Part shown: piece after piece, positions 713 to 51,945 of the stretch
Layout: each line of letters opens with the position of its first letter
Position numbering within the stretch: position 1 is the first letter of the stretch
From: Nitrospirota bacterium
Lineage (GTDB): Bacteria; Nitrospirota; Thermodesulfovibrionia; Thermodesulfovibrionales; JdFR-86
NCBI GenBank assembly: GCA_963721805.1
Contig: CAVRJY010000001.1
Location: forward strand, 960,001-1,024,000
DNA length: 64,000 nt
Direction of reading: 5' to 3'
Made by a program: the position numbers and the translations under genes
The notes under the pieces: model-generated
Databases searched by the model: none
The model's input: the letters and a program-made list of their open reading frames with translations, nothing else
Told to the model about the DNA's origin: nothing

Positions 713-836
713 AAAGCCGCGCTAAATTGCCTGATACGTTGTCGCGCCATCGCCCTCACGCCCTCAGAGTACGCCCAAGTACACTTGCGGGCGGAGGGCT
801 CGCCGCTCCTAGTCTGAGCCTAATTTATCGCGCTTT
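713..836 (+). repeat. ~122-bp palindromic MITE/REP-like element, copy A (left end of island 1)
   Basis: Ends AAAGCCGCGCTAAAT...ATTTATCGCGCTTT, central GTAC-N6-GTAC; aligns with copies at 4682, 49700 and 51824. Confidence 0.85.
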
Positions 837-923
837 GATGTTGCTATGTTCCTAATCGCGCGAGCGGTCAACGGCATTGATTGGAGCGGCCAAGCCGCTG
901 GACCCTCGCGCCCCCGTGGATTA

Positions 924-2411
924 TTAACACCGATCGATCAATTCCTCTATGAATGGAATGAACGATTCAGGTACTAGATCAGAGATTTTTGTGTTATAGA
1001 TATTCATACTTACAATATGTATTATTTCTTTGGGCAACTCTTTTAATTCAAAAGGGAACGGCTCTGGACGAAAATCTCTTCTTCGACCAATAGGATTATG
1101 ACTTGCTTCCAGTTTTATCCACTTGCCATAAATCTCATCCTCGCCTGAAACAAGAATTAGGTTGAATCCCCTTCCGCTCCCAGTTTTTAAGTACCCCCAT
1201 GCTATTATGGTCATATTATTAACTACATAATTCCTGCTAACCCGTTCTATCATAACTTCAATTTGTTCCTTAGGACGGGTAGACATTCTACCAGGATGAC
1301 TACATAGGATAGCAAATGAAAACTCGCCTCTTTTTCTGAGTTCTAATTTCATAGAATCTGATGAATCATTGAAAGCTTGTACAATTGTTCCAACCTTCGT
1401 TGCCAATTCAGTAAAGGCAAACATAATAGCACCTATTTTTTCCCTTATCCTCATCTGCTCAGCTTCTTGCTTCAATCGAAACTCTTCCTCTCTTTGCGTT
1501 TTAGTAATCGTTTTTTTAACTAAGGCGCTAATGTCATAGCCTTTTTCAGCCGGCTGTTCTGTAGACATTATTCGTGAAATTATTTCATCCCATGAGGAAT
1601 ACCTCTCTTCTGGTCTCTTGGCGATCATTTTCATAATTAACTGCGTCAGATTTAAATCAAGTGATGTATTAATTGTGTTTGGAAGTGTTGGTAATTGTGT
1701 AAGATGAGCATTTCTCCATGCCTCAATAATATCGCCAACTGCTTTAACTTCAAGTGGGTGTCGCAATGTCGCAAGTTCATAAAAAACTATACCCATTGAG
1801 TAAATATCCATGCTTATGGTATTTTTCTCAGAGCGCAAAGCCTCTGGAGCAGAGTATTTAATATGTTGAATGCCTTTGAATGTTGAAGACCGAGTTGCTG
1901 CATTTACTGCTTTTGAAAGACCAAAATCAGAAATCTTTAGCATTGATTCCTTCAATAATATATTGTCAGGCTTGATGTCTCTATGGATGACTTTATCATT
2001 TATTGCTTTCATTCCAGATGACAATTGTAAAAATAAATCACGAAGCTCTTTATTGCTTAACAAATGATTCGCATCCTTTTGACGCTTAATAATATCTAAC
2101 AATGTTCCGTCCGAAGCATACTCCATAATCAGATAGGGAGGAAGATGGCTATACGTATTGCCATCATGAAAGAAATATGCTTTTATTACATTCTCATGGT
2201 CGATTGTTACGGAAAGTTTAGCTTCATTAATTAAAGCCGCCAACTGGTCATTATTCAATGAGGCTGTAATGATTGTCTTCAGAGCATACTCGTCACCATT
2301 TGCTGTTGCTATCTTAAAGACTTGTCCAAAACTGCCATTATCCAAAAAACTAATCACACGTAGCTCTTCACCGTTTGAGCCATAAACTATACCATCTGGT
2401 CTTATATCCAT
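924..2411 (-). CDS. Hanks-type Ser/Thr protein kinase with uncharacterised C-terminal domain (AT-rich cargo)
   Basis: GSFGQV, ALK, IHRDIKPDN, DFG and APE motifs; no TM segment seen; strongly AT-rich relative to flanks. Confidence 0.92.
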   Translation of the reverse strand: MDIRPDGIVYGSNGEELRVISFLDNGSFGQVFKIATANGDEYALKTIITASLNNDQLAALINEAKLSVTIDHENVIKAYFFHDGNTYSHLPPYLIMEYASDGTLLDIIKRQKDANHLLSNKELRDLFLQLSSGMKAINDKVIHRDIKPDNILLKESMLKISDFGLSKAVNAATRSSTFKGIQHIKYSAPEALRSEKNTISMDIYSMGIVFYELATLRHPLEVKAVGDIIEAWRNAHLTQLPTLPNTINTSLDLNLTQLIMKMIAKRPEERYSSWDEIISRIMSTEQPAEKGYDISALVKKTITKTQREEEFRLKQEAEQMRIREKIGAIMFAFTELATKVGTIVQAFNDSSDSMKLELRKRGEFSFAILCSHPGRMSTRPKEQIEVMIERVSRNYVVNNMTIIAWGYLKTGSGRGFNLILVSGEDEIYGKWIKLEASHNPIGRRRDFRPEPFPFELKELPKEIIHIVSMNIYNTKISDLVPESFIPFIEELIDRC

Positions 2412-2527
2412 AACACACTCCTAATAATTGGATGAATTTATGTTACTACAAAATCAAGATAATATTGACAGTTGCGATTGTCGATAGAAATTTGTTCATG
2501 AATATGCTCCCCCCATACCACACCTCT

Positions 2528-3111
2528 CCGGAACTGGCCAATAGGAACCAGTTCCCAGGAATCGCCTCATGCGTCGTCACAGCACAAAGCGATTCTCAGC
2601 GTATCTGCGATAAGCTTGCGGTCGTTCTGTGCTATGCCTCGTATGATGCGATTTGATCATATATCACTATCTGTGAGCTTACTAACTATGGTTAGTTTAT
2701 AAACCGCATAACACAAAAGCCCGGAACTGGTTCCTAGGAACCAGTTCCCAAGAATCGCCTCATGCGTCGTCACAGCACAAACGATCCTCAGCGTATCTGC
2801 GATAAGCTTGCGGTCGTTTTGTGCTGTTCCTTGTATGATGCGATTTGATCATATATCACTATCTGTGAGCTTACTAACTATGGTTAGTTTATAAACCGCA
2901 TAACACAAAACCCCGGAACTGGCCAATAGGAACTGGTGCCCAGGAATCGCCTCATACGTCGTCACAGCACAAAGCGATCCTCAGCGTATCTGCGATAAGC
3001 TTGCGGTCGTTTTGTGCTCTGCCTAGTATGATGCGATTTGATCATATATCACTATCTGTGAGCTTACTAACTATGGTTAGTTTATAAACCGCATACCACA
3101 AAAGCCCGGAA
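2528..3111. repeat. Tandem array of three near-identical units (193, 192, 193 bp) plus the start of a fourth
   Basis: Units start CCGGAA at 2528, 2721, 2913 and 3106 and differ at only a few positions. Confidence 0.95.
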
Positions 3112-4311
3112 TGTAAAGGTTACGCTCTTACCGGACAGTATCAGGCTGGAAAAAGCAGGCGGCAGCCAGCCCTTCCATCGGTTAGAATGTTTCACCACAA
3201 AACACAGACCGAAGGAGGAAGGGCATGACTGCCAAAGAAAAGATATCACAAGGGAGGCTTTCAATGCTTCAGCTGGCCGAGAGGCTCAGGAACGTGTCGG
3301 AGGCCTGTCGCCGCCGGGGGGTGAGCCGCAGCCAGTTTTACGAGTACAAGCGGGCGTTTCAGGAGCAGGGGTTTGCGGGGCTCGCGGACCTTCCGCCGAT
3401 AGCGCGTAGCTGTCCCCACAAGACGCCTGAGGAGGCCCGCAAGCGAGTGATCGAGATGAGCCTTGCTCACCCCCGGTGGGGGAAGCAGCGCATCTTCGAG
3501 CACCTGCTTCTGGAGGGCATATTGGTGCGTCCCTCAACTGTGTATCGCATCCAGGTTCGCGAGGGGCTGGAGTCGAAGGCCAAGCGCATCCTCCGGCTTG
3601 AGCAGGAGGCTAACGGCAAGGAGATCGAGCTAACGGAGGAGCAGGTCAAGCTCATCGAGCGGGCCAATCCGTGCTTCAGGGAAAGGCATGTGGAGAGCGC
3701 ATATCCGGGCTATCTGCTCAGCCAGGACACCTTCACGGTGGGCAAGCTCAAGGGCATCGGGACCGTGTATCTGCAGGCCGTGGTGGACACGTACGGCTCT
3801 TATGCCTTCGGCAAGCTGTACACGTCGAAGAGGCCCGAGACGGCGGCCGACGTGCTCTACGACCGCGTGCTGCCGTTTTACGAGGACCATGGCATCAGGG
3901 TCCAGCATGTCCTGACGGACAACGGCTCGGAGTACTGCGGCAAGCTGCTGCGGCATCCGTACGAGCTGTTTCTGGCGCTTCACGACATCGCGCATCGAAG
4001 GACGAAGGTGGCGACACCGAGGACAAACGGATTCGTGGAGCGGTTTAATCGCACCATCCTGGACGAGTTCTTCTCGGAGACGTTCAGGTACCGGTTCTAC
4101 GCATCGCTCGATGAGCTGCAGTATGACCTCGACCGGTGGCTGCACCACTACAACAACGAGCGCCCTCACAAGGGCTATCGCAACATGGGCAGACGGCCAA
4201 TAGAAACTATCGAGCTGGGCAAAAAGCTAAGACAGAAAGCTGAGGAGGAGGCCGCCTGATCAGTGCGACCGATGAGATGGAAAACTGTCCGGAGAGCACT
4301 GGACTTTTACA
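3112..4311 (+). mobile_element. IS481-family insertion sequence, 1200 bp, 8-bp target duplication GCCCGGAA
   Basis: TGT...ACA ends; 28-bp imperfect TIRs (TGTAAAGGTTACGCTCTTACCGGACAGT / TGTAAAAGTCCAGTGCTCTCCGGACAGT); GCCCGGAA at 3104-3111 and 4312-4319. Confidence 0.93.
3225..4259 (+). CDS. IS481-family DDE transposase
   Basis: N-terminal HTH (NVSEACRRRGVSR), QDTF, LTDNGSEY, TNGFVERFNRT, YNNERPH; GGAGG RBS. Confidence 0.95.
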   Translation: MTAKEKISQGRLSMLQLAERLRNVSEACRRRGVSRSQFYEYKRAFQEQGFAGLADLPPIARSCPHKTPEEARKRVIEMSLAHPRWGKQRIFEHLLLEGILVRPSTVYRIQVREGLESKAKRILRLEQEANGKEIELTEEQVKLIERANPCFRERHVESAYPGYLLSQDTFTVGKLKGIGTVYLQAVVDTYGSYAFGKLYTSKRPETAADVLYDRVLPFYEDHGIRVQHVLTDNGSEYCGKLLRHPYELFLALHDIAHRRTKVATPRTNGFVERFNRTILDEFFSETFRYRFYASLDELQYDLDRWLHHYNNERPHKGYRNMGRRPIETIELGKKLRQKAEEEAA

Positions 4312-4314
4312 GCC

Positions 4315-4382
4315 CGGAACTGGTCAATGGGAACTGGTTCCCAGGAACCAGTTCCCAGGAATCGGTTCCCATGGACTGGTTC
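4315..4382. repeat. About five tandem ~14-bp GGAAC(T/C)(G/A)GTTCC-like quasi-palindromes
   Basis: GGAACTGGTCAATG-GGAACTGGTTCCCA-GGAACCAGTTCCCA-GGAATCGGTTCCCA-TGGACTGGTTCC; the same motif heads each 193-bp unit. Confidence 0.85.
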
Positions 4383-4681
4383 CGCCTTTTGGTTCTATCA
4401 TCGCGCATGATGAATATAACGACAACAATAGTAAGACCAACAGATGTTAGAAAAACGACTTGTGTGGGCAGGGGATATGGCGGTGGGTCAAACGAAAAAC
4501 GTTTCTGAACGCCTAAACACTGAGGTGCGGAGAAAGCGCTTATTTTCCGCTGGGTTGGACTGTTTTTTCTCTGTTCATTTGAACGCTCTAAAAAAATACG
4601 CGCGGCCGCGCGCGGTATGTGTAACTATAGTAAGCCGTTGACCGCGAGGCGCGGAGGCAGCGGCTGTGCCGCGCACTTCGC

Positions 4682-4803
4682 AAAGCGCGATAAATCGCGT
4701 CAGACTAGGAACGGCGAGAAGGCCGACCGCAGGTGTACTGTGACGTACTCCGAGGGAGCGGCTTCGAGCCGTGACAACGTATCACGCGACTTTAGCGCGC
4801 TTT
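4682..4803 (-). repeat. ~122-bp palindromic element, copy B (right end of island 1, inverted relative to A)
   Basis: Reverse complement reads AAAGCGCGCTAAAGTCGCGTGATACGTTGTCACGG...GTACGTCACAGTACAC...CCTAGTCTGACGCGATTTATCGCGCTTT. Confidence 0.88.
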
Positions 4804-5378
4804 CACTTCTTGCACTTCGGAAACTCCCCGCTGCCAAAGCCGGGGTATGCTTTCCACTCGCTCGGTGCGGTCGGGTTCGTGACTTTGGGCCATACCTCCG
4901 GACGCGGGTCGGGTCCCTCATCCCCGGTAGGCGCGCAGTCGCCGAGCCGCGGATTGCGGGATACGTCGACGCCGGGTATGGGTGTGGTGAACTCCACGGC
5001 CACGCCGTGTGGGTCGAAGCAGTAGATCGAGTGGATGAAGCCGTGGTCTATGACCATAGATACCCAAATACCGGCGGCCTCGATGCGGTCGCGGATCTCG
5101 TAGAGCGCGGCCTCGTCCTCGACACCGATCGCGATGTGGTCAAAGGCGAACGGCCCGGTAGTCGGGACGCCGTGCTCCTTTTCCTTGATCGGCTCGATGC
5201 CGGGCCACTCGAAGAAGGCGAGCATGCAGCGGTCCGCGACCTCGACGAAGTAGACCTTGCCGCCGGTATCGCCGAACGAGACGCGCACGGGCATGCCGAG
5301 CAGGTCGCGCCAGAAGCGGAGCGTCTCGCCGAGGTTGCCGGTGGCGATAGCGACGTGGTGTGTGCCGGTGTACCTCAT
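4803..5378 (-). CDS. VOC/glyoxalase family protein
   Basis: HHVAI...FW..LLG, FDHIAI, SIYCFDPHGVAVE motifs. Confidence 0.85.
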   Translation of the reverse strand: MRYTGTHHVAIATGNLGETLRFWRDLLGMPVRVSFGDTGGKVYFVEVADRCMLAFFEWPGIEPIKEKEHGVPTTGPFAFDHIAIGVEDEAALYEIRDRIEAAGIWVSMVIDHGFIHSIYCFDPHGVAVEFTTPIPGVDVSRNPRLGDCAPTGDEGPDPRPEVWPKVTNPTAPSEWKAYPGFGSGEFPKCKK

Positions 5379-29089: not shown

Positions 29090-29162
29090 TACGCCAGGCA
29101 GGAATCGAACCTGCGGCCAGCTGCTTAGAAGGCAGCTGCTCTATCCGCTGAGCTACTGGCGC
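29090..29162 (-). tRNA. tRNA-Arg(UCU), CCA not encoded
   Basis: GCGCCAG/CTGGCGT acceptor stem, GCTGC-CTTCTAA-GCAGC anticodon arm, GGTTCGATTCC T-arm. Confidence 0.93.
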
Positions 29163-29172
29163 GTTGCTGCTA

Positions 29173-29246
29173 TCGGGGCGAGAGGATTCGAACCTCCGAC
29201 TCCCTGCTCCCAAAGCAGGTACGCTACCGGACTGCGCCACGCCCCG
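29173..29246 (-). tRNA. tRNA-Pro(UGG), CCA not encoded
   Basis: CGGGGCG/CGCCCCG acceptor stem, CCTGC-TTTGGGA-GCAGG anticodon arm, GGTTCGAATCC T-arm. Confidence 0.94.
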
Positions 29247-46947: not shown

Positions 46948-47295
46948 TGGTGGAGGCGAGGGGAATTGAACCCCTGTCCGAGAGCACTAAACCGAGGCAT
47001 ACTACATGCTTAGTCCGCCTATTTGAGTTTCGGACTCCGGTGTGCCGGTTGACGGGCCCTCCAGAGTCCTATCCCCTTGATCTTGGTCAGCGGCAAAGGG
47101 CGTGCCGCCGAAGCATTCCGCCTTGTGACGTCAGCGGGTCAGGTGCGGAAGGCCCGGCCCGTGACGCGCAACCTAATTAGGCTGCGAGTGCCAGTTCGTC
47201 GTTGGCAGTTGTGAATTTTCCACAGTATTTACGTGGTCATGGATCCACGGCATGCAGCCTGGGCTTCGCAACCCCCGTCGAAGCCGGTCGCCCCC
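46948..47295 (-). ncRNA. ssrA: tmRNA; tag (A)ANDELALAA encoded at 47206-47177
   Basis: 5' GGGGGCGACCGGCTTCGAC, 3' TTCAATTCCCCTCGCCTCCACCA, tag ORF; directly downstream of smpB. Confidence 0.95.
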
Positions 47296-49699: not shown

Positions 49700-49821
49700 A
49701 AAGCGCACTAAATACGCGTGATACGTTGTCACGGCTCGCAGCCTCGTCCTCAATGTACGTCACAGTACACCTCCGGGCGGTCTGCTCGCCGCTCCTAGTC
49801 TGACGCGATTTATCGCGCTTT
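49700..49821 (+). repeat. ~122-bp palindromic element, copy C (left end of island 2)
   Basis: AAAGCGCACTAAAT...GTACGTCACAGTACAC...CCTAGTCTGACGCGATTTATCGCGCTTT. Confidence 0.88.
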
Positions 49822-49944
49822 AAGTTTCCGATGCGGGATCATGCGAGCGGTCAAAGGCATGATTGTAGTGCCCCGCCGCTGCCTCCGCGCCTCGTGGAAA
49901 AGGATTATATGGGTGCTATGCATCTGCGTAAGACTATTGCGTTT

Positions 49945-51255
49945 CTATGAGGATAAAGAGAAAAGAAAATCAATCATATTAAAATGATGTTTATTTATTG
50001 CAATAAGTTGTTCACCATGATGTGTGCCTATGGCTCTCCTGGTTTCAAGTGTAAACTCATGAAGTGCATGATATTTATCATTGCTCCATATCTCACCGAA
50101 CCCCACGCAACTCAATGAAGAAATGTCTTCCTTGCCTAGCTGTCGATTATTAGCATCTGAAATGCGTGGATTCCACGTAATATCTTTATGTGCTTTTTTC
50201 ATTTCATATGCATCAGGAAAAACTTCTCTGTAAATCAACAATTGAATTATCACATCCTTAATATATGGGCCTGTTTTTGCTGGTGTCGCGAGATAAATTA
50301 GATACCGCAAGACTATCGGCTTTATCTTTCTTGGGTTGGATATACCAAGAGTGAGGAAGTATTTTGCGAACCCTTCGATCTGCACCTTGTTATGAGTATA
50401 CCAATCTTCCTCTGAATACCTTTTGGCGATCTCAATGATAAATTCCATGTTTGCTTCATCGCAGACCGGGACATCAAATGACAGGTTGACAATCTTCCTT
50501 AAATACTCGCTTCCGCTTATAAGGTTTGTGCCATACCTTGCCTCAATTCCTTTCTCTAATACAAGCCTATCAACCCCGATAATGAAGATGCATCTATTGC
50601 CTTTTATTGAAATGAAATGCTTAATGTTCTCTATGAGCTTCACTACATTCTCAGGGAGGCACCTATCTAGGTCATCAATAAAAACAACAAGCGCTTTTTT
50701 CTTCCCTGCAATTTTTTCTACAACACTTGAAAAATCATGTTTTAGTTTTTCAATTTCACTTATCCATTTTTCATAATAATCAGACACATCTTTTTCGTAT
50801 TTGGTATAGTTTTCTTGAATATCTTTTAGATTCAACAGCCCAGCAGTTGAATGTTTCAGTAGGGCATCGCCACCTGCCAATAATACCCCTGTAGCAACCT
50901 TCCTCAATGAATCGAGGCTCTTATTTTGTTTCTTGCCAGTTGTTTTTGCCAGCCGGGATAAAAGAGGCAATAACAACGAAGCCTCATTTTCATATTCCCA
51001 TGCGTCAAACCAAAAAGTTTCAAATGATGCAGAGTTGTTCATTTGAGCTTGCAACATCTTCATGAAGGACGTTTTTCCGCTTCCCCACTCGCCATAGACA
51101 CCAAGTGTAAATGGTGGGGTAACTTGTTCTATAAGCGCGCAAAGCCGGATAACAGAATCCTTATGGTTCAAAAAATCATTCTTGAATGGATCGTCACTCG
51201 CAACTTCAACAGGGTTTTCAGGATCAAGCCGTAATTTCCACTTTGAGTCACTCAT
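49945..51255 (-). CDS. KAP-family P-loop NTPase (AT-rich cargo)
   Basis: GEWGSGKT, FDAWEY, VVFIDDLDRC, YLRKIV, NPR. Confidence 0.92.
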   Translation of the reverse strand: MSDSKWKLRLDPENPVEVASDDPFKNDFLNHKDSVIRLCALIEQVTPPFTLGVYGEWGSGKTSFMKMLQAQMNNSASFETFWFDAWEYENEASLLLPLLSRLAKTTGKKQNKSLDSLRKVATGVLLAGGDALLKHSTAGLLNLKDIQENYTKYEKDVSDYYEKWISEIEKLKHDFSSVVEKIAGKKKALVVFIDDLDRCLPENVVKLIENIKHFISIKGNRCIFIIGVDRLVLEKGIEARYGTNLISGSEYLRKIVNLSFDVPVCDEANMEFIIEIAKRYSEEDWYTHNKVQIEGFAKYFLTLGISNPRKIKPIVLRYLIYLATPAKTGPYIKDVIIQLLIYREVFPDAYEMKKAHKDITWNPRISDANNRQLGKEDISSLSCVGFGEIWSNDKYHALHEFTLETRRAIGTHHGEQLIAINKHHFNMIDFLFSLSS

Positions 51256-51823
51256 CAGTACACCTACTTTCTCGCCAAAGTATATTGCTGGTAGATATTT
51301 TAAGATAAAGTTCTCAGTTTGACAAGATGCCCGGATCCCATCCGTATACTAAGATGCTTCTTGCCCTCGTAAATCATTTTGGGGACTTGTTTCTGTTATC
51401 ACTAACTATAGTTAATCGAAAGTTAATAGAAAACGCACGGGGGACAATTTTCCCTATCAACTTCGGTTTATATATAAACCAAAGTTTGGCGGCCTTTGGT
51501 GTATAGTGAGTTAATGAGCATGATAGGATTATATTTGATGAGCGGGGCAGGCGGGGCAGGAGGGCTCCGCGCGTGTTCGGATAAATCGGCAAATACCTCG
51601 TTTTTTATCCGAACATCCGAACAAGGGGCGGAAAAACAAATGAGTATCTTCGCAGGGTTAGCCCCGGTTTTGACCCCAACATCCGAACGGAAAACGCAAA
51701 AACGCGCGCGCACGCGCGCGAAATGCATAACTATACGTATGACCGGCTCTCAAATCATGCCGTTGACCTTGGGGGGCGCGGGGGGCGGGGCCGACTGGCC
51801 CCCCTCCTTTTTCCCCACCCCCG

Positions 51824-51945
51824 AAAGCGCGAGAAATCGTCTTCAGACAAGGCAGGGCGAGAAGACCGCCCGATGGTGTACTTGGGCGTACATAGAGGGC
51901 GAGTCTTTGAAGCCCAACGCAGTATCAAGCGATTTGGCGCGCTTT
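51824..51945 (-). repeat. ~122-bp palindromic element, copy D (right end of island 2, inverted relative to C)
   Basis: Reverse complement AAAGCGCGCCAAAT...GTACGCCCAAGTACAC...GATTTCTCGCGCTTT; core GTACGCCCAAGTACAC identical to copy A. Confidence 0.85.

Follow-up and report, generated by a model that had tools for sequence, protein, structure and literature searches.

The island-1 locus (positions 713 to 4803) of a 64,000-nucleotide stretch of a Nitrospirota bacterium genome (C1:960001-1024000; hereafter the window) carries a low-GC protein kinase gene enclosed by two inverted copies of a 122-bp hairpin repeat. On balance, we favor the interpretation that a docking platform of about sixty slots extends over the chromosome and that island 1 is one of its occupied slots, in which the walls stay in place and the cargo is exchanged in trans. 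Two repeat units facing head to head would make a slot, and a trans-acting recombination activity would exchange the cargo at the heads or immediately inward of them. The original prediction, made from the sequence of the window, had proposed a family of trans-mobilised cassettes; the conserved inverted ends and exchangeable cargo that it described are in agreement with our results, whereas the idea that each cassette is mobile with its own ends is not.

The assembly comprises 2.78 Mb in nine contigs (GC ~0.60). An nhmmer profile built from the four window copies of the repeat and run for two rounds over the genome contigs returned 238 matches, 200 of which span at least 100 model positions. 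Copies with a score of ≥40 over ≥90 model positions were classified as strong; 196 were kept, and the 42 weak or partial matches were left out of later counts. We defined a pair as head-to-head '+-' neighbours among the strong copies, no more than 8 kb apart. By this definition, 118 of the 196 strong copies make up 59 pairs, leaving 78 units unpaired, and the units are spread as facing pairs over six contigs. Contigs C3, C7, C8, and C9 are diverged duplicates (80-95% identity) of portions of C1 and probably represent co-assembled strains or sister species, i.e., the bin is probably not strictly one genome.

Within the window, the four ~122-bp copies reported earlier were recovered by nhmmer at 714-836 (+), 4682-4803 (-), 49700-49821 (+), and 51824-51945 (-), and they were also read and aligned. 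They form two facing pairs that enclose low-GC DNA, as had been described for the two AT-rich islands; the statement that copies occur only as such pairs holds for the four strong copies but overlooks three weak, degenerate ones that also lie in island 1. Each unit is polar and ~180 bp long, consisting of the 122-bp hairpin, a spacer of ~30-55 bp, and a near-invariant head, GGTCAA(C/A)GGC(A/T)T. The inward homology that had been noticed corresponds to these parts: the spacer followed by GGTCAA(C/A)GGC is present in all four units, and the block common to the right ends opens a larger non-coding module that is also conserved. The head cores in the window are located at 866-875, 4634-4643 (reverse complement), 49849-49858, and 51759-51768 (reverse complement). 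Genome-wide, 143 of 169 GGTCAAMGGC sites have a similarly oriented hairpin no more than 130 bp away.

The hairpin consensus, derived from 161 full-length genomic copies, starts with AAAGCGCGCCAAATCG, ends with CGATTTGGCGCGCTTT, and has GTAC-N6-GTAC at its centre. Terminal inverted repeats of ~14 bp and the same centre had been claimed from the window; in the genome-wide consensus, AAAGCGCGCCAAATCG...CGATTTGGCGCGCTTT is a perfect 16-bp terminal inverted repeat. The copy at 49700-49821 folds end to end with -47.2 and -52.2 kcal/mol on the two strands (z ~-4.4 each), and none of 200 shuffled sequences folded as well. With respect to whether the hairpin acts as RNA or as DNA, and on which strand, 38 of 45 family members had a minus-strand fold at least as good as that of the plus strand. 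G-U versus A-C base-pair variants numbered 126 vs. 26 over the 12 pairs called by RNAalifold and 113 vs. 146 over all 41 pairs of the consensus fold. CGTC frequently, although not always, follows TGATAC. The spacers fall into several types, the majority of which are GC-rich hairpins and one of which terminates in TAATCGTGCGAGC; when unit ends were compared genome-wide, the order of the modules was mosaic. Apart from a preference for ~8 pyrimidine-rich bp, the outer flank of the hairpin is unconserved, and the outer edge is sharp, with homology ending within 5 bp of the edge in 99 of 119 hairpin pairs that are ≥97% identical. A twin of ≥98% identity exists for 30 of the 161 hairpins. In the manner of a REP (repetitive extragenic palindromic) or MITE (miniature inverted-repeat transposable element) repeat, the hairpin unit undergoes spread or homogenisation independently of cargo.

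The arrangement of units along the chromosome disclosed a strong preference for facing pairs at short range. Neighbouring units separated by 150-3000 bp were oriented '+-' in 41 cases, '-+' in 5, '++' in 9, and '--' in 10 (binomial p = 4e-8), and over all distances '+-' and '-+' were equal (58 vs. 61). For gaps of 300-8000 bp, the median GC was 0.473 inside '+-' neighbours (n = 53) versus 0.627 inside '-+' neighbours (n = 25; p = 5e-11). The 59 pairs occupy 4.8% of the genome, yet 210 of the 604 500-bp windows whose GC is below 0.48 fall inside them. For paired units, GC below 0.52 was found on the head side in 81 of 118 and on the outer side in 5 of 118; for unpaired units, the corresponding numbers were 22 of 77 and 2 of 77. 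Low-GC accessory genes, among them toxin-antitoxin pairs, restriction-modification genes, and other defence-like genes, are confined to the head side. Scattered solo copies lacking any enrichment of inverted pairs around foreign cargo had been named beforehand as the outcome that would speak against the islands being bracketed elements; the copies are scattered genome-wide, but the excess of '+-' neighbours and the low GC inside them reveal that pairs around such cargo are enriched.

Positions relative to genes could suggest a simpler origin, namely that the unit is an ordinary REP- or ERIC-like 3'-end repeat and that islands gather harmlessly between convergent genes. In accordance with this, ~61% of the units (120/196) adjoin the 3' end of a gene, at a median distance of 18 bp from the stop codon, and PMC3733652 mentions REP dimers, arranged head to head, whose partners are separated by inserted DNA. 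The genes flanking the 59 pairs are convergent in 22 cases, co-directional in 23, divergent in 7, and unclear in 7. This mixture indicates that the pairs are not merely 3' elements of two converging genes, as only 22 of the 52 fully called pairs have the expected arrangement. One wall abuts a gene start in each of the two window islands, and the extreme asymmetry in low GC (81 vs. 5 of 118 units) also disagrees with a coincidental placement, which we regard as quite improbable.

In ~60% of the slots, a non-coding module of 300-430 bp continues inward from one head. For the slots longer than 300 bp, the module was present at one end in 32 of 53, at neither in 21, and at both in none. Two types can be distinguished, an island-2 type with GTTCGGATG/ATCCGAAC iterons and an island-1 type with GTTCAAATGAAC; both contain, reading inward, a GC hairpin followed by a T run, together with TAACTATAGTTA-like palindromes. 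Small open reading frames (ORFs) in the module were considered as genes and judged non-coding: six members had 43-57% amino-acid identity, and their DNA was ~73-82% identical over longer matches.

A pair and its contents could instead be a non-autonomous transposon (a mobile insertion cassette or MITE composite) whose transposase is located elsewhere, so that walls and cargo would travel together. The inverted ends, their terminal inverted repeat of 16 bp, and the sharpness of the outer edges are what such an element would display, and six cargo-less pairs with interiors of 68-146 bp resemble MITEs; the absence of a transposase inside and flanking genes that are not restricted to convergent ones are also compatible with it. 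Target duplications, on the other hand, were not evident around the 59 pairs, whose longest direct outer-flank matches had the same distribution as 300 mismatched controls in a comparison that is blind to 2-4 bp; this extends the earlier observation of no duplication at the outer ends of the window islands. A flanking duplication of at least 11 bp was found for 1 of 77 unpaired units, so that long duplications are not a general feature of the family. An all-against-all BLAST of the 59 cassettes and 138 cargo ORFs revealed no case of the same cargo at two loci. Only insertion sequence (IS) copies, the units, and the non-coding module are common to several cassettes; the identical genes are IS transposases alone, and other cargo families common to cassettes are 31-86% identical. 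Furthermore, the two arms of one slot are not close kin, as the partner had a median rank of 73 of 160 and was in the top 3 in only 2 of 44 cases. A transposon also fits poorly with the unpaired units, with the different ends of the three IS families present, and with the occurrence of the hairpin in other phyla without clear cargo.

Comparison of contig C9 (13.7 kb) with its collinear counterpart, C1:844383-858281, allowed us to follow walls and cargo at orthologous positions. The two are roughly 80-85% identical (about 83%; 55-99% per 100 bp), and both unit-bearing sites of the C1 stretch carry units in C9. At the paired site (C1 854812-857159 vs. C9 10228-12448), the host flanks are alignable, as are the hairpins (~64-83% in overlapping 100-bp windows), the left spacer and core (~95%), and the right-hand module (80-95% per 100-bp window). 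The ~1.5 kb between the walls is unalignable and represents unrelated cargo, and the spacer of the right hairpin is of a different type in C1 and C9. At the unpaired site, the spacer type also differs, and the low-GC DNA past the head is common to both contigs. In this one slot, the walls persist at orthologous sites over ~17% divergence while the DNA between the heads is replaced. The conservation of the C9 walls with different cargo, along with no target duplication and no duplicated cargo, supports fixed docking slots rather than transposons moving with their ends, and we consider a transposon rather unlikely. More generally, the stable walls, unrelated arms, and mixed flanks favor long-lived walls with replaceable contents.

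The flanking genes of the window islands were also searched for in related genomes. The 191-aa gene at the right flank of island 1 had no match in 10 same-family genomes. The 314-aa gene at a flank of island 2 was present in 10 of 10 of these genomes, without the 524-aa left neighbour beside it. In a metagenome scan, the best relative of the 524-aa flank protein was 40% identical, and nhmmer detected no unit in those 76 loci. Of the sequencing runs considered, one contained a small share (0.05), and its contigs spanned repeat fragments rather than junctions.

To describe the distribution of the hairpin beyond this genome, we used both the whole unit and an exact pattern. BLAST with the unit found it in 0 of 30 relatives and gave no match in plasmid and phage collections. 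An 18-mer of spacer plus core had two matches in viral contigs, both in coding DNA without a nearby hairpin, and these were dismissed as chance. The exact pattern, TGATAC-N(24-36)-GTAC-N6-GTACAC-N(21-33)-GTCTGA, the motifs of which are invariant by construction in all matches, had 115 matches here, whereas a sample of 300 other genomes of the phylum contained none; the reversed-pattern control gave 0. In one-genome-per-species contigs, the pattern was found at at least 40 loci, relative to a rough chance expectation of ~11 that assumes equal base frequencies. Lineages among the matches listed include Clostridia/Christensenellaceae, Desulfovibrionaceae, Gallionellaceae/Sideroxydans, and Berkiella metagenome-assembled genomes (MAGs). 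All 41 matches listed span 83-88 bp, where the pattern permits 67-91. Exact copies numbered 1-6 per genome in five genomes of other phyla.

All 34 aligned sequences from other phyla (33 of the 40 listed loci) fold as a ~125-nt hairpin with differing stem sequences. These were evaluated by single-sequence folds; RNAalifold on the cross-phylum MAFFT alignment recovered only the apical 4 pairs because that alignment is not structure-aware. Rfam models at gathering score reached only a tmRNA and two tRNAs in the window, and the hairpins matched nothing in Rfam at E values up to 10 (window) or up to 1 (five loci from other phyla). Around the 40 listed loci, the 5'-side neighbour presents its 3' end in 31 of 37 called cases, and about half of the hairpins lie within 15 bp past the stop codon of that gene. 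The 140 ORFs around the listed loci are housekeeping genes; setting aside genes for conjugation and type IV secretion next to the Berkiella copies, they include no transposase or recombinase. In the other phyla, a weak trend towards low GC was seen on the 3' side (6 vs. 2 of 34 loci, p = 0.06). Several Clostridia MAGs have a family member directly after the uvrB stop codon, and others are positioned behind trpS, ruvA, and similar genes. Loop motifs that are kept alongside differing stems in Clostridia suggest a conserved function at gene 3' ends. The hairpin appears to be a member of a patchily distributed structured family not in Rfam, which in this genome has been amplified and joined to a lineage-specific head.

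These observations are relevant to the view that the hairpin unit alone is mobile and either homes to the borders of foreign DNA, inserting beside AT-rich islands with its head facing them, or is kept there by selection, perhaps because it insulates transcription or structure. Each pair would then stem from two independent insertions, with cargo turnover being unrelated. Near-identical, sharp-edged hairpins at unrelated loci would be expected, as would the independence of the two arms of a pair and the 22 of 77 unpaired units that also face low-GC DNA. The inward GC hairpin with its T run could stop read-through, and the hairpins of other phyla are solitary and located just past stop codons, predominantly next to a gene 3' end. 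Border homing leaves unexplained, however, the near-invariant head at the exact junction, the one-sided module (32 slots vs. 0 with it at both ends), and the precise replacement of cargo between conserved inner edges in the C1/C9 slot. We find this view fairly unlikely.

The docking platform raises the question of which activity would exchange the cargo, and two possibilities would each account for about half of that reading. A site-specific enzyme could use the head and be assisted by the iteron module as an accessory arm; this option is favored by the junction with its invariant head, the one-sided iteron module, and the facing cores in two cargo-less dimers. Alternatively, homologous recombination or gene conversion could act between common arms after uptake of DNA from relatives with the same platform, an option favored by the swapped spacer types and mosaic arms. 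A bolder proposal, which we hold as a tentative possibility, is a chromosomal gene-capture system without an integrase, in which the heads and the iteron arm would be substrates of an undescribed, possibly host-encoded, recombination enzyme that loads or swaps cassettes, and the hairpin would belong to an uncatalogued family of structured elements in several phyla.

Several findings weigh against exchange at fixed slots. Cargo turnover was seen at a single orthologous slot in one co-assembled contig, and the data examined contained no true empty site, circular junction, or excision product. Two facing cores occur in only 2 of the 6 cargo-less pairs, 78 units are unpaired, and 21 slots are without the module. 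The bases just inside the two heads are inverted rather than direct repeats and, therefore, poorly fit a simple attL/attR pair of a tyrosine recombinase. Homologous recombination alone does not explain the first arrival of cargo beside a head. No enzyme was linked to the units: the genome contains seven matches to tyrosine-recombinase domains and one 275-aa serine recombinase, none of them beside a unit, and neither IS110 nor TnpB was present. An integron was also rejected, as no integron integrase was detected (best TIGR02249 score of 68.8 bits vs. the cut-off of 265).

The original prediction had suggested looking for a family member that encodes a HUH/Y1, DDE, or tyrosine recombinase, but no recombinase is linked to the pairs, and a match to the ends of a catalogued IS or MITE, the other outcome it had considered, was not obtained with the IS481, IS200, and IS30-like types of this genome, whose ends are unrelated to the unit. 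These elements were consequently treated as secondary, later passengers. The IS481 type has 10 near-identical genomic copies, all within or beside slots, several of them in GGAAC/GTTCC palindromes with common flanks. This placement could mean either that the element prefers the slot module as a target or that slots are places where its landing is tolerated. The IS200 type (602 bp) has six identical copies in or beside cassettes and its own hairpin ends, CCCCGTGGCAAGCCACGGGG; as a discrete IS with such ends, it was rejected as the cognate enzyme. A single-copy RAYT (REP-associated tyrosine transposase) was not found in the genome, where PF01797 gave six matches, all to this same IS200-type element. 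The IS30-like element is 1096 bp long, encodes a 339-aa transposase, has AGTGGATTGTCAAGCC... ends, and is present in seven copies. Five of the seven are inserted at one same position inside the 122-bp hairpin (C1:649225-650444, 759538-760757, and 387219-388438; C2:397025-398251 and 367096-368246), and the element appears to target the hairpin repeat. A separate region at C2 ~301-333 kb, with three of the tyrosine-recombinase-domain matches and the sole serine recombinase, is probably a conventional integrative element or prophage; no hairpin unit is located between C2:288114 and C2:366875.

Island 1 illustrates the components of an occupied slot. Its left wall is the whole-length imperfect hairpin at 714-836 (+; nhmmer E 1e-23, model positions 1-122), followed by a spacer at 837-865 (+) of the '...TAATCGYGCGAGC' type, which recurs beside many units genome-wide. 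The left head at 866-886 (+) comprises the core GGTCAACGGC and ATTGATTGGAG, a GGTCAAMGGC site behind a hairpin of the same orientation. The GC-rich hairpin module CGGCCAAGCCGCTGG...CCCCCGTGGA occupies 887-920 (+); in other units it sits between the hairpin and the core. The cargo gene, at 924-2411 on the minus strand, is a low-GC ORF for a 495-aa Ser/Thr protein kinase (Pfam Pkinase, 3.8e-45), with PADLOC matches to mad6 (2e-54) and PD-T4-6 (8e-46), and to many other PD-T4-6 models. It is reasonable to describe this kinase as PD-T4-6-like, with a predicted anti-phage role.

Upstream of the kinase gene, three tandem units of ~193 bp extend over 2480-3100 (+), each containing GGAAC...GTTCC palindromes, a degenerate AT-rich hairpin copy, and a TAACTATGGTTA motif. 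These hairpin copies are the weak nhmmer matches at 2560-2655, 2753-2847, and 2945-3040 (E 6e-4 to 1e-6), and they carry CTCATGC/GTATGA where TGATAC/GTCTGA is expected. The TAACTATGGTTA motif resembles the inner end of the island-2 module. An IS481-family element is located at 3112-4311 (+), recognized by an rve-type DDE transposase (344 aa, 3225-4259; Pfam rve/rve_3/HTH) with an N-terminal helix-turn-helix (HTH) domain, short inverted ends (TGTAAAGG), and a target direct repeat. The last is the 8-bp GCCCGGAA at 3104-3111 and 4312-4319, and this discrete 1.2-kb copy is, as had been proposed, a secondary insertion.

On the right side, the island-1 type of the conserved non-coding module spans 4320-4633 (-) and holds GTTCAAATGAAC, the CGCGCGGCCGCGCG hairpin followed by a T run (reading inward), and TAACTATAG. 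A BLAST query of 4260-4681, which overlaps this module, had up to ~39 partial genomic copies, always adjoining a unit. The right head core, read from the sequence at 4634-4643 (-), is GCCGTTGACC, the reverse complement of GGTCAACGGC. It is followed by a spacer at 4644-4681 (-) that comparison of unit ends assigned to the GC-rich hairpin GCGAAGTGCGCGGC.CAGCCGCTGCCTCCGCGCCTCGC type, and by the right wall at 4682-4803 (-; nhmmer E 6e-30). The last base of this wall, 4803, is the A of the TGA stop codon (4803-4805) of the flanking 191-aa gene (4803-5378, minus strand).

The sister slot, island 2 (49700-51945), has the same layout. The hairpin at 49700-49821 (+) and core at 49849-49858 are followed by a KAP P-loop NTPase gene (436 aa; 49945-51255, minus strand), the second core at 51759-51768, and the hairpin at 51824-51945 (-). 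In both islands, as noted previously, a minus-strand cargo gene ends just inside the left end (924-2411 and 49945-51255). The non-coding module of island 2 is ~430 bp long with GTTCGGATG iterons. In PADLOC, the NTPase matched PDC-S20 (3e-59) and also PifA and QatA. Together with the mad6/PD-T4-6 matches of the kinase, this makes the defence label given earlier to the islands a reasonable one. A tmRNA gene (46948-47295) and two adjacent tRNA genes (29090-29246) are situated ~2.4 kb and 20 kb from island 2, with no visible link to it.

The 53 non-empty slots yielded 138 ORFs with a length of 70 aa or more, and a Pfam scan of these revealed that many have no Pfam match. Toxin-antitoxin families were represented by HepT/MNT, MazE/PemK, ParE, Phd, Gp49 with HTH, and DUF4160/DUF2442, and defence-type families by Abi_C, HEPN, an N6_N4 methylase fused to Mrr, HNH, PLD, and DUF5677. 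The KAP NTPase, the Ser/Thr kinase, and a 1150-aa HD-CE/TPR protein are further cargo of the defence type. Submission of 56 of the 138 ORFs to PADLOC, the larger ones and none from insertion sequences, returned matches for 14 of the 56.

If the heads are the true exchange points, the slots would constitute a way to organise and renew a defence and toxin-antitoxin repertoire that is distinct from integrons, transposons, and classic genomic islands. About 5% of the 2.8-Mb genome and roughly a third of its low-GC DNA sit in slots. The head, the iteron module, and the cargo-less head-to-head dimers offer precise junctions, and the slots set a hairpin family that Rfam lacks, and that is found at gene ends in several phyla, in a biological context. 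Because many slot cargos have no Pfam or PADLOC match, the slots may also serve as a handle for new defence genes. Should a chromosomal gene-capture system prove to be the correct description, similar slots may exist widely.

A description of hairpin-walled chromosomal slots was not found in the literature searched, which did not cover subscription journals, and we therefore compared the slots with known systems that have some of their features. Chromosomal integrons and CALINs contain imperfect palindromes (~120 bp for the Vibrio repeats) and many small cassettes rich in toxin-antitoxin and unknown-family genes, and their recombination is thought to use folded single strands. The palindrome size and the small, toxin-antitoxin-rich cassettes are similar here; however, this genome has no integrase, its pairs are dispersed and facing rather than in one co-oriented array, and R''/R' core motifs were not seen in them. 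ERIC/IRU, Correia/NEMIS, and RUP are hairpin repeats of ~100-150 bp that resemble the present one in size, whole-length imperfect palindromy, intergenic position, and high copy number. Unlike them, the hairpin described here has no TA duplication, has acquired a polar head, retains internal-loop motifs across phyla, and brackets cargo.

Mobile insertion cassettes and MITE composites (MIC231, TIMEs, and integron mobilisation units; see also PMC5444012 and PMC4133298) likewise carry passenger genes between inverted repeats without a transposase; they have target duplications and ends matching a known IS or Tn3 transposase, neither of which was found for the slots. In the excerpts available, REPs are 20-40 bp palindromes with an unpaired GTAG or CGTC tag in which a doublet forms the hairpin; head-to-head dimers occur, DNA can be present between their partners, and some families (CGTC REPs) have no dedicated transposase (PMC3733652). 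As far as the same excerpts and those of PMC3116915 and PMC3337134 go, REP, BIME, and REPIN sequences share with our unit an abundance of extragenic palindromes near gene ends, head-to-head dimers, and the lack of target duplication. The unit differs from the 20-40 bp REPs outlined there in that one 122-bp hairpin is extended by a spacer and a head, and the only Y1 genes of this genome, in contrast to REP/RAYT systems, belong to the six identical IS200 copies, which have ends of their own. The REP properties that these excerpts describe do not include a systematic bracketing of foreign cargo (PMC3733652, PMC3116915, PMC3337134).

The dif modules of Acinetobacter plasmids are accessory modules bounded by inversely oriented pdif XerC/XerD sites, according to the partial texts of PMC13141974, PMC6449649, and PMC12907356. 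The pdif sites of these texts are 28-bp plasmid Xer sites, in contrast to ~180-bp structured chromosomal walls, and the head in our unit is without an evident 11-6-11 dif-like layout, as judged by eye. In both systems, insofar as those texts portray dif modules, small accessory modules, often with toxin-antitoxin genes (or resistance genes in dif), lie between inverted copies of one site, have no recombinase inside, show no target duplication, and are, or in our case would be, shuffled between fixed positions. By analogy, the closest architecture would be that of the dif modules, and the closest repeat biology that of REP/REPIN sequences.

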